Assembly (NCBI RefSeq): GCF_988242995.1
Contig: NZ_OZ547043.1
Reading direction: 5' to 3' (one strand)
Length of the DNA stretch: 64,000 nucleotides
In this document: positions 1,766 to 37,834 of the stretch, in pieces
How the letters are laid out: each line of letters begins with the position of its first letter
Position numbering within the stretch: position 1 is the first letter of the stretch
Program-made: the position numbers and the translations under genes
Notes under the pieces: model-generated
Seen by the model: only the letters and a program-made list of their open reading frames with translations
Databases searched by the model: none
Told to the model about the DNA's origin: nothing

Positions 1766-2482
1766 TTAATCTTCCAGATCACCGCAGAAGCGATAACCTT
1801 CACCGTGAATGGTGGCGATGATTTCCGGCGTATCCGGCGTAGATTCGAAATGTTTACGAATACGGCGGATCGTCACGTCTACAGTACGGTCGTGTGGTTT
1901 CAGCTCACGGCCGGTCATTTTCTTCAGCAGTTCAGCACGAGACTGAATTTTGCCTGGGTTTTCACAGAAGTGAAGCATGGCGCGGAACTCACTGCGCGGC
2001 AGCTTGTACTGCTCGCCATCAGGGCCGATCAAAGAACGGCTGTTGATGTCCAGTTCCCAACCATTGAACTTGTAGCTTTCAACGCTACGACGTTCTTCGC
2101 TGACAGTACCCAGATTCATGGTACGGGACAGCAGGTTGCGTGCACGAATCGTCAGTTCACGCGGGTTGAACGGTTTGGTGATGTAGTCATCTGCACCGAT
2201 TTCGAGGCCGAGAATTTTATCGACTTCGTTGTCACGGCCAGTCAGGAACATCAACGCAACATTCGCCTGCTCGCGCAGTTCACGCGCTAACAGAAGACCG
2301 TTCTTACCCGGCAGATTGATATCCATGATCACCAGGTTGATGTCATATTCAGAGAGGATCTGATGCATTTCCGCGCCATCTGTCGCTTCGAAAACATCAT
2401 AGCCTTCCGCTTCGAAAATACTTTTCAACGTGTTGCGTGTTACCAACTCGTCTTCAACGATAAGAATGTGCGGGGTCTGCAT
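1766..2482 (-). CDS. arcA: Two-component response regulator ArcA (OmpR family)
   Basis: 238-aa ORF starting [30 protein letters not shown]... with a receiver domain and winged-helix C-terminus; recognised as ArcA. Confidence 0.95.
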
Positions 2483-2577
2483 GTTTGCTACCTAAATTGC
2501 CAACTAAATCGAAACAGGAAGTACAAAAGTCCCTGACCTGCCTGATGCATGCTGCAAATTAACATGATCGGCGTAAC

Positions 2578-2718
2578 ATGACTAAAGTACGTAATTGCGT
2601 TCTTGATGCACTTTCCATCAACGTCAACAACATCATTAGCTTGGTCGTGGGTACTTTCCCTCAGGACCCGACAGTGTCAAAAACGGCTGTCATCCTAACC
2701 ATTTTAACAGCAACATAA
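2578..2718 (+). CDS. yjjY: Small uncharacterised ORF (46 aa) at the position of K-12 yjjY
   Basis: ATG at 2578 with an in-frame stop after 46 codons; position relative to arcA and lasT matches annotated yjjY. No independent coding evidence. Confidence 0.3.
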   Translation: MTKVRNCVLDALSINVNNIISLVVGTFPQDPTVSKTAVILTILTAT

Positions 2719-3117
2719 CAGGCTAAGAGGGGCCGGACACCCAATAAAACTACGCTTCGTTGACATATATCAAGTTCAATTGTAGCACGTTAACAGTTTG
2801 ATGAAATCATCGTATCTAAATGCTAGCTTTCGTCACATTATTTTAATAATCCAACTAGTTGCATCATACAACTAATAAACGTGGTGAATCCAATTGTCGA
2901 GATTTATTTTTTATAAAATTATCCTAAGTAAACAGAAGGATATGTAGCATTTTTTAACAATTCAACCGTTAGTACAGTCAGGAAATAGTTTAGCCTTTTT
3001 TAAGCTAAGTAAAGGGCTTTTTCTGCGACTTACGTTAAGAATTTGTAAATTCGCACCGCGTAATAAGTTGACAGTGATCACCCTGTTCGCGGTCATTTGG
3101 TCAAGAAGAGTGGCAAT

Positions 3118-3804
3118 ATGCGTATAACGATTATTCTGGTCGCACCCGCCAGAGCAGAAAATATTGGGGCAGCGGCGCGGGCAATGAAAACGATGGGGTT
3201 TAGCGAACTGCGGATTGTCGATAGTCAGGCACATCTGGAGCCAGCCACTCGCTGGGTCGCACATGGATCTGGTGATATTATTGATAATATTAAAGTTTTC
3301 CCGACGCTGGCTGAATCGTTACACGATGTCGATTTCACTGTCGCCACCACTGCGCGCAGTCGGGCGAAATATCATTACTACGCCACGCCAGTAGAACTGG
3401 TGCCGCTGTTAGAGGAAAAATCTTCATGGATGAGCCATGCCGCGCTGGTGTTTGGTCGCGAAGATTCCGGGCTGACTAACGAAGAGTTAGCGTTGGCTGA
3501 CGTTCTTACTGGTGTGCCGATGGTGGCGGATTATCCTTCGCTCAATCTGGGGCAGGCGGTGATGGTCTATTGCTATCAATTAGCAACATTAATACAACAA
3601 CCGACGAAAAGTGACACAACGGCAGACCAACATCAACTGCAAGCTTTACGCGAACGAGCCATGGCATTGCTGACGACTCTGGCAGTGGCAGATGACATAA
3701 AACTGGTCGACTGGTTACAACAACGCCTGGGGCTTTTAGAGCAACGAGACACGGCAATGTTGCACCGTTTGCTGCATGATATTGAAAAAAATATCACCAA
3801 ATAA
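3118..3804 (+). CDS. lasT: SpoU/TrmH-family RNA methyltransferase (YjtD/LasT)
   Basis: ORF-track ORF 3097..3804; start chosen at the internal Met (MRITIILVAPARAENIGAAARAMKTMGF...) to give the 228-aa K-12 length. Confidence 0.8.
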   Translation: MRITIILVAPARAENIGAAARAMKTMGFSELRIVDSQAHLEPATRWVAHGSGDIIDNIKVFPTLAESLHDVDFTVATTARSRAKYHYYATPVELVPLLEEKSSWMSHAALVFGREDSGLTNEELALADVLTGVPMVADYPSLNLGQAVMVYCYQLATLIQQPTKSDTTADQHQLQALRERAMALLTTLAVADDIKLVDWLQQRLGLLEQRDTAMLHRLLHDIEKNITK

Positions 3805-4014: not shown

Positions 4015-4083
<69 letters not shown>

Positions 4084-4105
4084 CGCGTACAGGAAACACA
4101 GAAAA

Positions 4106-4138
4106 AAGCCCGCACCTGACAGTGCGGGCTTTTTTTTC
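4106..4138 (+). terminator. thr attenuator (rho-independent terminator of the leader transcript)
   Basis: AGCCCGCACCTGACAGTGCGGGCT hairpin followed by a run of 8 T, between thrL and thrA. Confidence 0.85.
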
Positions 4139-9390: not shown

Positions 9391-9497
9391 CGCCTGATGC
9401 GACGCTGGCGCGTCTTATCAGGCCTACGTGAATTCTGCAATATATTGAATCTGCATGCTTTTGTAGGCCGGATAAGGCGTTCACGCCGCATCCGGCA
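9391..9497. repeat. BIME: two inverted REP palindromic units
   Basis: CGCCTGATGCGACGCTGGCGCGTCTTATCAGGCCTAC and the inverted GTAGGCCGGATAAGGCGTTCACGCCGCATCCGGCA match the E. coli REP/PU consensus. Confidence 0.7.
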
Positions 9498-15989: not shown

Positions 15990-17906
15990 ATGGGTAAAAT
16001 AATTGGTATCGACCTGGGTACTACCAACTCTTGTGTAGCGATTATGGATGGCACCACTCCTCGTGTGCTGGAGAATGCCGAAGGCGATCGCACCACGCCT
16101 TCTATTATTGCCTATACCCAGGATGGTGAAACTCTGGTTGGTCAGCCGGCTAAACGTCAGGCAGTGACGAACCCGCAAAACACCCTGTTTGCGATTAAAC
16201 GCCTGATTGGCCGCCGCTTCCAGGACGAAGAAGTACAGCGTGATGTTTCCATCATGCCGTTCAAAATTATTGCTGCTGATAACGGCGACGCATGGGTCGA
16301 AGTTAAAGGCCAGAAAATGGCACCGCCGCAGATTTCTGCTGAAGTGCTGAAAAAAATGAAGAAAACCGCTGAAGATTACCTGGGTGAACCGGTAACTGAA
16401 GCTGTTATCACCGTACCGGCATACTTTAACGATGCTCAGCGTCAGGCAACCAAAGACGCAGGCCGTATCGCTGGTCTCGAAGTAAAACGTATCATCAACG
16501 AACCGACCGCAGCTGCGCTGGCTTACGGTCTGGACAAAGGTACTGGCAACCGTACTATCGCGGTTTATGACCTGGGTGGTGGTACTTTCGATATTTCTAT
16601 TATTGAAATCGACGAAGTTGACGGCGAAAAAACCTTCGAAGTTCTGGCAACCAACGGTGATACCCACCTGGGTGGTGAAGACTTCGACAGCCGTCTGATC
16701 AACTATCTGGTTGAAGAATTCAAGAAAGATCAGGGCATTGACCTGCGCAACGATCCGCTGGCAATGCAGCGCCTGAAAGAAGCGGCAGAAAAAGCGAAAA
16801 TCGAACTGTCTTCCGCTCAGCAGACCGACGTTAACCTGCCGTACATCACTGCAGACGCGACCGGTCCGAAACACATGAACATCAAAGTGACTCGTGCGAA
16901 ACTGGAAAGCCTGGTTGAAGATCTGGTAAACCGTTCCATTGAGCCGCTGAAAGTTGCACTGCAGGACGCTGGCCTGTCTGTATCTGATATCGACGACGTT
17001 ATCCTCGTTGGTGGTCAGACTCGTATGCCAATGGTTCAGAAGAAAGTTGCTGAGTTCTTTGGTAAAGAGCCGCGTAAAGACGTTAACCCGGACGAAGCTG
17101 TAGCAATCGGTGCTGCTGTTCAGGGTGGTGTTCTGACTGGTGACGTAAAAGACGTACTGCTGCTGGACGTTACCCCGCTGTCTCTGGGTATCGAAACCAT
17201 GGGCGGTGTGATGACGACGCTGATCGCGAAAAACACCACTATCCCGACCAAGCACAGCCAGGTGTTCTCTACCGCTGAAGACAACCAGTCTGCGGTAACC
17301 ATCCATGTGTTGCAGGGTGAACGTAAACGTGCGGCTGATAACAAATCTCTGGGTCAGTTCAACCTGGATGGTATCAACCCGGCACCGCGCGGCATGCCGC
17401 AGATCGAAGTTACCTTCGATATCGATGCTGACGGTATCCTGCACGTTTCCGCGAAAGATAAAAACAGCGGTAAAGAGCAGAAGATCACCATCAAGGCGTC
17501 TTCTGGTCTGAACGAAGATGAAATCCAGAAAATGGTACGCGACGCAGAAGCTAACGCCGAAGCTGACCGTAAGTTTGAAGAGCTGGTACAGACTCGCAAC
17601 CAGGGCGACCATCTGCTGCACAGCACCCGTAAGCAGGTTGAAGAAGCAGGCGACAAACTGCCGGCTGACGACAAAACTGCTATCGAGTCTGCGCTGACTG
17701 CACTGGAAACTGCTCTGAAAGGTGAAGACAAAGCCGCTATCGAAGCGAAAATGCAGGAACTGGCACAGGTTTCCCAGAAACTGATGGAAATCGCCCAGCA
17801 GCAACATGCCCAGCAGCAGACTGCCGGTGCTGATGCTTCTGCAAACAACGCGAAAGATGACGATGTTGTCGACGCTGAATTTGAAGAAGTCAAAGACAAA
17901 AAATAA
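15990..17906 (+). CDS. dnaK: Chaperone DnaK (Hsp70)
   Basis: 638-aa [45 protein letters not shown]...; unmistakable Hsp70. Confidence 0.97.
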
Positions 17907-17994
17907 TCGCCCTATAAACGGGTAATTATACTGACACGGGCGAAGGGGAATTTCCTCTCCGCCCGTGCATTCATCTAGGGGCAATTTAAAAAAG

Positions 17995-19125
17995 ATGGCT
18001 AAGCAAGATTATTACGAGATTTTAGGCGTTTCCAAAACAGCGGAAGAGCGTGAAATCAAAAAGGCCTACAAACGCCTGGCCATGAAATACCACCCGGACC
18101 GTAACCAGGGTGACAAAGAGGCCGAGGCGAAATTTAAAGAGATCAAGGAAGCTTATGAAGTTCTGACCGACTCGCAAAAACGTGCGGCATACGATCAGTA
18201 TGGTCATGCTGCGTTTGAGCAAGGTGGCATGGGCGGCGGCGGTTTTGGCGGCGGCGCAGACTTCAGCGATATTTTTGGTGACGTTTTCGGCGATATTTTT
18301 GGCGGCGGACGTGGTCGTCAACGTGCGGCGCGCGGTGCTGATTTACGCTATAACATGGAGCTCACCCTCGAAGAAGCTGTACGTGGCGTGACCAAAGAGA
18401 TCCGCATTCCGACTCTGGAAGAGTGTGACGTTTGCCACGGTAGCGGTGCAAAACCAGGTACACAGCCGCAGACCTGTCCGACCTGTCATGGCTCTGGTCA
18501 GGTGCAGATGCGCCAGGGTTTCTTTGCCGTGCAACAGACCTGTCCACACTGCCAGGGCCGCGGTACGCTGATCAAAGATCCGTGCAACAAATGTCATGGT
18601 CATGGTCGTGTTGAGCGCAGCAAAACGCTGTCCGTTAAAATCCCGGCAGGGGTGGACACTGGAGACCGCATCCGTCTTGCGGGCGAAGGTGAAGCGGGTG
18701 AACACGGCGCACCGGCAGGCGATCTGTACGTTCAGGTTCAGGTTAAACAGCACCCGATTTTCGAGCGTGAAGGCAACAACCTGTATTGCGAAGTCCCGAT
18801 CAACTTCGCTATGGCGGCGCTGGGTGGTGAAATCGAAGTACCGACCCTTGATGGTCGCGTTAAACTGAAAGTGCCTGGCGAAACCCAGACCGGTAAGCTG
18901 TTCCGTATGCGCGGTAAAGGCGTCAAGTCTGTCCGCGGTGGCGCACAGGGTGATTTGCTGTGCCGCGTTGTCGTCGAAACACCGGTAGGCCTGAACGAGA
19001 AGCAGAAACAGCTGCTGCAAGAGCTGCAAGAAAGCTTCGGTGGCCCAACCGGCGAGCACAACAGCCCGCGCTCAAAGAGCTTCTTTGATGGTGTGAAGAA
19101 GTTTTTTGACGACCTGACCCGCTAA
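17995..19125 (+). CDS. dnaJ: Co-chaperone DnaJ (Hsp40)
   Basis: [40 protein letters not shown], Gly/Phe-rich region and four CxxCxGxG zinc-finger repeats; 376 aa from the internal Met of the ORF-track ORF. Confidence 0.95.
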
Positions 19126-19228
19126 CCTCCCCAAAAGCCTGCCCGTGGGCAGGCCTGGGTAAAAATAGGGTGCGTTGAAGATATGCGAGCACCTGTAAAG
19201 TGGCGGGGATCACTCCCCGCCGTTGCTC

Positions 19229-19381
19229 TTACTCGGATTCGTAAGCCGTGAAAACAGCAACCTCCGTCTGGCCAGTTCGGATGTGAACCTCACAGAGGTC
19301 TTTTCTCGTTACCAGCGCCGCCACTACGGCGGTGATACAGATGACGATCAGGGCGACAATCATCGCCTTATGCTGCTTCAT
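19229..19381 (-). CDS. hokC: Hok-family small membrane toxin HokC (Gef), type I toxin
   Basis: 50-aa frame MKQHKAMIVALIVICITAVVAALVTRKDLCEVHIRTGQTEVAVFTAYESE nested in the 3' part of the 80-aa ORF-track ORF. Confidence 0.85.
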   Translation of the reverse strand: MKQHKAMIVALIVICITAVVAALVTRKDLCEVHIRTGQTEVAVFTAYESE

Positions 19382-19438
19382 TGCTCTCTTCTCCTTGACC
19401 TTACGGTCAGTAAGAGGCACTCTACATGTGTTCAGCAT
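19229..19438 (-). CDS. mokC: MokC, overlapping reading frame that couples hokC translation
   Basis: Same frame as hokC, extended upstream to MLNTCRVPLTDRKVKEKRA...; typical hok/mok architecture. Confidence 0.7.
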   Translation of the reverse strand: MLNTCRVPLTDRKVKEKRAMKQHKAMIVALIVICITAVVAALVTRKDLCEVHIRTGQTEVAVFTAYESE

Positions 19439-19484
19439 ATAGGGGGCCTCGGGTTGATGGTAAAATATCACTCGGGGCTTTTCT
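19430..19484 (+). ncRNA. sokC: SokC antisense RNA (type I antitoxin), approximate ends
   Basis: Opposite the mokC start; TTGACC -35-like hexamer at 19396-19401 on the + strand; CCTCGGG...CTCGGGG hairpin followed by CTTTTCTC at ~19446-19484 fits a terminator. Ends inferred from the known hok/sok layout. Confidence 0.55.
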
Positions 19485-19966
19485 CTATCTGCCGTTCAGC
19501 TAATGCCTGAGACAGACAGCCTCAAGCACCCGCCGCTATTATATCGCTCTCTTTAACCCATTCTGTTTTATCGATTCTAATCCGGAAGACGCCTCGCATT
19601 TTTATGGTGTAATTTTTTAATGATTTAATTATTTAACTTTAATTTATCTCTTCATCGCAATTATTGACGACAAGCTGGATTATTTTTGAAATATTGGCCT
19701 AACAAACATCGCCGACTGACAACAAATTAATTATTACTTTTCCTAATTAATCCCTCAGAAATCCTCACCTTAAGCTATGATTATCAGGGCTTAGGGTCAC
19801 CCGTCAGCGCTTACAGCCGTCAAAAACGCATCTCACCGCTGATGGCGCAAATTCTTCTATAGATCGTAAAAAACGAATTATTCCTACACTATAATCTGAT
19901 TTTAACGATGATTCGTGCGGGGTAAAATAGTAAAAACGATCTATTCACCTGAAAGAGAAATAAAAA

Positions 19967-21133
19967 GTGAAACATCTGCATCGATTCTTTAGCAGTGATG
20001 CCTCGGGAGGCATTATTCTTATCATTGCCGCTATCCTGGCGATGATGATGGCCAACAGCGGCGCAACCAGTGGATGGTATCACGACTTTCTGGAGACGCC
20101 GGTTCAGCTCCGGGTTGGTTCACTCGAAATCAACAAAAACATGCTGTTATGGATAAATGACGCGCTGATGGCGGTATTTTTCCTGTTAGTCGGTCTGGAA
20201 GTTAAACGTGAACTGATGCAAGGATCGCTAGCCAGCTTACGCCAGGCCGCATTTCCAGTTATCGCCGCTATTGGTGGGATGATTGTGCCGGCATTACTCT
20301 ATCTGGCCTTTAACTATGCCGATCCGATTACCCGCGAAGGGTGGGCGATCCCGGCGGCTACTGACATTGCCTTTGCACTTGGTGTGCTGGCGCTATTGGG
20401 AAGTCGTGTTCCGTTAGCGCTGAAGATCTTTTTGATGGCTCTGGCTATTATCGACGATCTTGGGGCCATCATTATCATCGCATTGTTCTACACTAATGAC
20501 TTATCGATGGCCTCTCTTGGCGTCGCGGCTGTAGCAATTGCGGTACTCGCGGTATTGAATCTGTGTGGTGTACGCCGCACGGGCGTCTATATTCTGGTTG
20601 GCGTAGTGTTGTGGACTGCAGTGTTGAAATCGGGGGTTCACGCAACCCTGGCGGGGGTAATTGTCGGCTTCTTTATTCCTTTGAAAGAGAAGCATGGGCG
20701 TTCTCCAGCGAAGCGACTGGAGCATGTGTTGCACCCGTGGGTGGCGTATCTGATTTTACCACTGTTTGCATTTGCTAATGCTGGCGTTTCACTGCAAGGC
20801 GTCACGCTGGATGGCTTGACCTCCATTCTGCCATTGGGGATCATCGCTGGCTTGCTGATTGGCAAACCGCTGGGGATTAGTCTGTTCTGCTGGTTGGCGC
20901 TGCGTTTGAAACTGGCGCATCTGCCTGAGGGAACGACTTATCAGCAAATTATGGCTGTGGGGATCCTGTGCGGTATCGGTTTTACTATGTCTATCTTTAT
21001 TGCCAGCCTGGCCTTTGGTAGCGTAGATCCAGAGCTGATTAACTGGGCGAAACTCGGTATCCTGGTCGGTTCTATCTCTTCGGCGGTAATTGGATACAGC
21101 TGGTTACGCGTTCGTTTGCGTCCATCAGTTTGA
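19967..21133 (+). CDS. nhaA: Na+/H+ antiporter NhaA
   Basis: 388-aa polytopic [51 protein letters not shown]... Confidence 0.95.
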
Positions 21134-37388: not shown

Positions 37389-37794
37389 CCACAAAATGTT
37401 TATGATGATGCAAAAATAACACATTTAATTTATTGATTATAAAGGGCTTTAATTTTTAGCCCTTTTATTTTTGGTATTATGTTTTTAAATTTTATGTAAG
37501 TGCTAAAAATTACACGTTTTGTCTTCTGTTTTTGTTGTTTTAATGTAAATTTTGACCATCTGGTCCACTTTTTTCTGCTCATTTTTATTTCATGCAATCT
37601 TCTTGCTGCGCAAGCGTTTTCCAGAACATGTTATATGATCTTTTTGTCGCTTAATGCCTGTAAAACATGCATGAGCCACAAAATAATATAAAAAATCCCG
37701 CCATTAAGTTGACTTTTAGCGCCCATATCTCCAGAATGCCGCCGTTTGCCAGAAATTCGTCGGTAAGCAGATTTGCATTGATTTACGTCATCAT

Positions 37795-37834
37795 TGTGAA
37801 TTAATATGCAAATAAAGTGAGTGAATATTCTCTG
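37795..37834 (+). promoter_or_regulatory. Tandem ARG boxes (ArgR operators) overlapping the carAB P2 promoter
   Basis: TGTGAATTAATATGCAAA and GTGAGTGAATATTCTCTG resemble the ARG-box consensus (TGAAT..ATTCA) just upstream of the carA start and its GGAGGG Shine-Dalgarno. Confidence 0.5.

Follow-up and report, generated by a model that had tools for sequence, protein, structure and literature searches.

Organization of the hokC/mokC/sokC locus

The window, by which we mean the whole stretch of 64,000 nucleotides that was analysed, is a segment of an E. coli chromosome that runs from creC, arcA and thrLABC through dnaKJ, hokC and nhaAR to the cai operon. The dnaJ gene ends at 19125, and the stop codon shared by hokC and mokC lies on the minus strand at 19229-19231, so that the spacer between the two is 103 bp long. 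No IS186-like sequence was found in this spacer or anywhere else in the 64-kb window. An earlier note on this DNA had described the hokC/mokC/sokC locus as uninterrupted, with no adjoining IS186 and with a contiguous 3' region of about 100 bp between the dnaJ and hokC stop codons, and the measured spacer agrees with it on each of these points. The span of 19126-19500 that it assigned to the locus is too short, as the 5' end of the hokC mRNA with its tac element lies at 19520-19531 and the TATAAT box at 19538-19543. The features of the locus are as follows.

19130..19531, minus strand: predicted full-length hokC mRNA, about 400 nt, from the 5' end GGGUGCUUGAGG to the terminator hairpin
19130..19160: terminator hairpin for the convergent dnaJ and hokC transcripts; the minus strand reads GGCCUGCCCACGGGCAGGC and then UUUU
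19168..19180, minus strand: fbi (fold-back inhibitory) element CUUCAACGCACCC, mRNA nt 352-364
19202..19221, minus strand: G+C-rich 3'-UTR hairpin GGCGGGGAGUGAUCCCCGCC, holding the empty IS186 target G4N6C4 at 19205-19218
19381-19229, minus strand: hokC toxin reading frame from the list of open reading frames, 50 aa, MKQHKAMIVALIVICITAVVAALVTRKDLCEVHIRTGQTEVAVFTAYESE
19229..19438, minus strand: mokC reading frame from the same list, 69 aa, ATG at 19438, containing the hokC frame and its stop
19391-19396, minus strand: hokC Shine-Dalgarno (SD) sequence AAGGAG
19395..19423, plus strand: sokC promoter, with -35 box TTGACC at 19395-19400, a 17-bp spacer and -10 box CACTCT at 19418-19423
19414..19418, minus strand: dcb (downstream complementary box) GCCUC, mRNA nt 114-118, overlapping the -10 region of sokC on the opposite strand
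19430..19488, plus strand: sokC antisense RNA gene, 55-59 nt, across the mokC start region; transferred from MG1655 sokC (16952..17010)
19446..19450, minus strand: mokC SD region GAGGC, mRNA nt 82-86, with the ATG 7-8 nt downstream
19474..19480, minus strand: ucb (upstream complementary box, the anti-SD for mok), mRNA nt 52-58
19520..19531, minus strand: tac (translational activator) GGGUGCUUGAGG, mRNA nt 1-12
19538..19543, minus strand: -10 box TATAAT of the hokC mRNA promoter, from direct reading and alignment to R1-type and IncY hok leaders

The HokC protein matches the Pfam family PF01848 (HOK_GEF) with 85.5 bits (cutoff 22; E = 1.8e-24), and its score against the NCBIfam Hok subfamily is below the cutoff (46.8 vs 73). 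The DNA of hokC is identical to that of K-12, and the protein accession, WP_000809168.1, is common to both. The mokC frame, which overlaps hokC, has its own intact SD and start codon, and the MG1655 annotation of mokC (16751..16960) maps onto the window with an offset of +2478. The hok leader is matched over the full length of Rfam RF01794 (model positions 1-157) at 19531-19379 on the minus strand, with 119.5 bits (gathering threshold 59; E = 1e-26). Every sequence part of the hok family is present and contiguous: the toxin, the in-frame mokC, the leader, sokC and four RNA elements, namely tac, ucb, dcb and fbi.

Although RF01794 is named 'sok antitoxin', its match is to the strand of the hok mRNA and stops at the AUG of hokC; it is in effect a model of the hok leader (19379-19531) and not of the Sok transcript. 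The label that PGAP gives to the 50-aa HokC coding sequence is 'mokC'.

Promoters and terminators

The -10 box of hokC is invariant in eight E. coli haplotypes, and no convincing -35 box was recognised in the sequence upstream of this TATAAT. A single-nucleotide difference from K-12 is located at 19563, where the -35 box would be. On the plus strand, a sigma-70-like match directed towards nhaA (19513-19542; CAGACA, 18 bp, TATTAT) overlaps the -10 region of hokC, which is on the minus strand; matches of this kind occur in the region at chance level.

The sokC promoter, which is the same as in K-12, has a near-consensus -35 box and a weak -10 box. In the alignment, the sok promoter regions of the R1-type and IncY loci fall at the same place, with TATCCT and TAATCT as their -10 boxes. 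The sokC RNA has a predicted folding energy of -20.7 kcal/mol (z = -3.7), with a terminator hairpin at about 19442-19482. Both of the elements named in the earlier note are thus present, but the -35 box lies at 19395-19400 instead of 19396-19401, and the hairpin is somewhat longer than the span of about 19446-19476 given for it. A consensus scan for promoters and terminators across 19050-19700 returned one match of each kind, with about 0.8 expected, and was not used as evidence. The scan missed the sokC promoter, which fell below the threshold, and both real terminators, that at 19130-19160 because it is followed by only four U.

Comparison with K-12 and the IS186 target

Alignment to K-12 matched 19002-19217 and 19206-19700 of the window to the two flanks of IS186. 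K-12 thus corresponds to the window plus a 1337-bp IS186 at the equivalent of 19206-19217, bordered by a 12-bp duplication, GGGATCACTCCC. MG1655 is annotated with IS186A, mokC, hokC and sokC at the matching positions. The distance from the end of IS186 to the hokC stop codon in K-12 is 23 bp by the boundaries determined here and 19 bp by the MG1655 annotation, in agreement with the figure of about 20 bp in the earlier note. The window does not carry the interrupted K-12-type hokC (gef) allele, its target at 19205-19218 being empty.

This target, GGGGATCACTCCCC, forms the loop-proximal part of the hairpin in the hokC 3' UTR and is the sole G4N6C4 site in the 64-kb window. According to SaiSree et al. 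in 2001, IS186 reportedly prefers targets with a G-run and a C-run, and the hokC target fits this description.

The remainder of the transcription unit is nearly invariant between the two strains. K-12 hokC (gef), mokC and sokC (sof), that is b4412, b0018 and b4413, have the same HokC and MokC proteins, the same leader and the same promoters, the sokC and hokC promoters being identical within 19382-19562. Besides IS186, the sole difference in the hok/mok/sok unit is at position 19444 inside sokC, which is G in the window and A in K-12. The G is also found in six other E. coli haplotypes, and in the mRNA it gives a C-G pair (U-G in K-12) at the base of the Sok-target hairpin. IS186 parts fbi and the terminator from hokC in K-12, whereas the window keeps them contiguous.

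Predicted folding of the hokC mRNA

In the published model of hok regulation, the closed full-length mRNA has tac paired with fbi and the mok SD held by ucb, while the open truncated mRNA has tac paired with ucb and the mok SD with dcb, and is the form that can be translated and to which Sok binds (PMC9841398). We folded the hokC transcript of the window with its 5' end placed by homology, from the start of the Rfam model and the R1-type hok leader; both ends are predicted. The full-length mRNA (402 nt) has a calculated minimum free energy (MFE) of -173 kcal/mol, with z = -7.4 relative to shuffled sequences. Its predicted MFE fold contains 12 tac-fbi pairs, and the ensemble probabilities are 1.0 for tac-fbi and 0.8 for mokSD-ucb; the fbi at 19168-19180 thus pairs with the 5' tac in the full-length folding that the earlier note had proposed as a check. 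The ucb pairing matches the consensus closing stem of RF01794.

When fbi was removed, tac was predicted to pair with ucb, with a probability of 0.67-0.85. For 3' ends at 19200 or 19222, the predicted probabilities were 0.85 for tac-ucb and 0.92-0.95 for mokSD-dcb, while an end at 19190 favoured a metastable 5' hairpin in which the SD was still sequestered. The refolding predicted for the hokC mRNA is thus dependent on the exact 3' end. Across the truncated and the K-12 chimeric transcripts, the predicted mokSD-dcb probability was 0.92-1.0. Transcripts that enter IS186 in K-12, in either orientation of the element, were predicted to be almost entirely in the open form, and only for the IS-free allele was a closed full-length reservoir form predicted. 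This prediction fits the published conclusion that IS186 in K-12 disrupts the fbi of hokC and removes fold-back inhibition (PMC3562002). In silico, the predicted transcript of the window reproduces each state of the published model.

Comparable tac-fbi duplexes were obtained for the hok loci of the R1 type and of IncY with RNAduplex, which replaced MAFFT for the 3' part, where MAFFT had left the R1 3' UTR and fbi unaligned to hokC. The shuffle control for these duplexes is weak for a G+C-rich 13-mer, as 18/500 and 71/500 shuffles equalled the real duplex, and therefore the argument for tac-fbi pairing is carried by the full-length fold and its pair probabilities. The tac element is invariant in eight haplotypes, and tac and fbi together in the seven that are uninterrupted. 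None of the defects that would speak against an intact system, namely a broken fbi/tac pairing, a damaged mok start or a truncated 3' UTR, was seen: the mokC start is intact and fbi is contiguous.

These predictions suggest the following scheme. The hokC mRNA would be made in a closed form, with the 5' tac on the 3' fbi and with ucb holding the mokC ribosome-binding site. Loss of the 3' end including fbi would flip the leader to tac/ucb and mokSD/dcb pairing, and this open leader would be the form that is bound by SokC and accessible to ribosomes. By analogy with the R1 hok/sok paradigm, pairing with SokC would lead to cleavage of the duplex by RNase III, and a fall in SokC would allow translation of mokC to drive the coupled translation of HokC, which would then damage the inner membrane.

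Distribution among E. coli genomes

An uninterrupted hokC was found in 3815 of 5426 complete E. coli genomes (about 70%; query 19050-19550). As this is the majority configuration, the uninterrupted hokC of the window is not unusual. The 501 bp of the query are 100% identical in several genomes, O157:H7 strains included. With 220-nt junction queries, IS186 was detected at the hokC target in 672 genomes in the K-12 orientation and in 924 in the opposite orientation; together with the uninterrupted loci, these 1596 genomes account for 5411 of the 5426. Counts of 1790 and 1800 obtained with 120-nt junction queries were discarded; other IS186 sites with G-rich flanks had reached 80% coverage.

The 12-bp duplication was identical in all four interrupted loci examined, those of K-12, 720632, EC052 and ABWA45. 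Strain 720632 carries IS186 in the opposite orientation between K-12-like flanks, EC052 carries it in the K-12 orientation with different dnaJ and nhaA alleles, and ABWA45 carries it in the opposite orientation next to a variant HokC. In the extracted loci, the element spans 1164-2500 (L001), 2121-3457 (L005 and L013) and 2109-3469 (L014). IS186 is present at the hokC target on at least three flanking haplotypes. [quoted passage not shown] The occurrence of both orientations at hokC suggests repeated insertion at a hot spot, or else inversion in place or spread by recombination.

Other lesions affect hokC as well. A nonsense allele, Q3* (CAG to TAG), was detected in 135 complete genomes by exact 60-mer match, and a few genomes have deletions at the locus. 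The Q3* change lies at the equivalent of 19373-19375 in loci that are otherwise uninterrupted (L006 and L007), and in these genomes PGAP calls a 44-aa 'Hok/Gef family protein' from Met7. It is conceivable, though we think it quite improbable, that intact hokC is an active and costly toxin module in natural E. coli from which lineages have repeatedly escaped, so that IS186 in both orientations, Q3* and the deletions would reflect recurrent selection for inactivation or re-tuning and not the mere chance of a hot spot. If this were true, IS186 would turn an mRNA of delayed activation into one under constitutive SokC control. What is mildly new is only the recurrence of disruptions at the IS186 target across the population, which lies outside the window.

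The region around hokC shows further variation. The segment from the hokC promoter to nhaA (19563-19700) is much more variable between strains than hokC; 2545 genomes align across 19000-20000, compared with 3815 across 19050-19550, and the alignments break near 19603 or 19648. Strain EC1515 is 100% identical to the window over 19000-20000 but only 98.8% identical over 50 kb. The interval between nhaR and rpsT (22136-28560) holds a chaperone-usher fimbrial cluster of four genes together with espX1, a homologue of a type III effector, where K-12 has only a fimbrial gene fragment beside IS1A. The reading frame of the usher (816 aa) is uninterrupted in the window and is annotated as frameshifted in EC1515, a close relative. 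Other Rfam matches above gathering were the Thr leader (4019-4138), ES036 (9420-9462), tpke11 in the dnaK-dnaJ spacer (17917-17994) and the ES003 sRNA (37744-37796), all of which are expected for this region of E. coli.

Functional state of the locus

HokC is toxic when overexpressed (10.1101/2025.08.07.668861; PMC8509063). For the IS-free hokC of ECOR24, neither post-segregational killing nor activation by rifampicin was seen, according to the work of Pedersen & Gerdes 1999 as reported in the preprint 10.1101/2025.08.07.668861, which gives negative results in the same two assays for the chromosomal hokA, hokB and hokC. On the other hand, knockdown of sokC was strongly deleterious to MG1655 in a CRISPRi screen (10.1101/2020.03.04.975888), in which dCas9 bound to sokC would at the same time occupy the transcription unit of hokC. 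Since the sokC knockdown is deleterious in MG1655, the IS186-bearing copy of K-12 may still be toxic, and the view that IS186 inactivates the K-12 locus, which the earlier note had mentioned, is not established. Its proposal that the copy in the window may be a functional toxin system holds as far as the intactness of the parts is concerned, and as read from the sequence the word 'functional' is justified only in part. A contrast between an active IS-free locus and an inactive K-12 locus is unsupported, because the ECOR24 locus reportedly gave no post-segregational killing and the MG1655 knockdown is deleterious.

That contrast, in its strong form, would make the copy in the window a fully active addiction killer of the R1 type and the K-12 copy a dead one. 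The contiguous fbi, the closed reservoir form predicted solely for the IS-free allele and the toxicity of the expressed peptide are all consistent with this, but the behaviour reported for ECOR24 and the MG1655 phenotype, by which the K-12 copy is probably not dead, argue against it, as do sokC and hokC promoters that are the same as those of K-12, and we consider it unlikely. The opposite view, in which the locus is an intact-looking but physiologically silent remnant whose expression or processing is too weak for HokC ever to be produced natively, seems to us improbable as well. It would account for the negative assays of the chromosomal hok loci, for the hokC promoter without a -35 box and for the loss or damage of hokC without obvious consequence in the IS186, Q3* and deletion genomes. 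However, the effect of sokC knockdown in K-12 speaks for genuine expression of the toxin, and most haplotypes show no variation in tac, fbi, the two SDs and the two reading frames, although the divergence within E. coli is too low for this to prove selection.

A third possibility concerns only the spacer, 19126-19228, which might be nothing but the terminator region of dnaJ, with no regulatory role for hokC. The hairpin at 19130-19160 does follow directly on the dnaJ stop codon, yet it has no T-run on the dnaJ strand and is followed by UUUU on the hokC strand, and the spacer contains the 13-nt fbi, which is complementary to the 5' end of the mRNA and is positioned as in the plasmid hok loci. 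This possibility is hardly credible. We conclude that 19130-19543 very probably holds the whole of the chromosomal type I toxin-antitoxin locus hokC/mokC/sokC of E. coli, in the wild-type state without IS186 that is common in the species, including the predicted switch between closed and open mRNA. The Rfam and Pfam E-values and the z-score of the full-length fold place the locus far from chance.

The strain analysed here thus has the standard wild-type hokC, and K-12, with the IS186-interrupted minority form, is the atypical reference. Comparisons that state what K-12 lacks or has can make a common allele look special. The natural allelic series, comprising the IS-free form, IS186 in either orientation and Q3*, would make the role of a native chromosomal hok locus testable in isogenic strains.

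Relation to known hok loci

The locus shares with hok/mok/sok of plasmid R1, the type system, a Hok/Gef toxin, an upstream mok frame, a cis-antisense Sok over the mok start, the tac, fbi, ucb and dcb elements and an mRNA of about 400 nt. Alignment with the R1-type IncFII and the IncY plasmid hok loci showed that the 5' end, the toxin and the ribosome-binding sites of mok and hok are conserved, and that the sok promoter keeps its position. The alignments to K-12 and R1 that the earlier note had suggested thus revealed IS186 and one base as the differences from K-12, together with a leader, SDs and toxin conserved with the R1 type. At the Tyr47 codon of HokC, TAC is followed by G (19240-19243; UACG on the minus strand), and the R1-type hok has the same GCUUACGAAUCC. 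A recent preprint describes A-to-I editing by TadA of the hokC, hokD and hokE mRNAs that recodes Tyr to Cys near Tyr47; the UACG site is intact in the hokC of the window.

The two systems differ in that hokC is chromosomal and the -10 box of sokC is weaker than that of R1. RF01794 matches hokC with 119.5 bits and the R1-type locus with 87.2 bits. The sequences of tac and fbi differ as well, each change in one element being matched in the other (GGGUGC/GCACCC in hokC and GGCGC/GCGCC in R1). Among the closest counterparts is the IS-free hokC/sokC of the wild E. coli strain ECOR24, which is described as occupying the same chromosomal site between dnaJ and nhaA, without IS186 and with a contiguous fbi. 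It was described in 1999 (Pedersen & Gerdes, as cited in PMC3562002 and in 10.1101/2025.08.07.668861). The hokC of the window is the ordinary form of a well-described locus, IS-free hokC having been known since that year.
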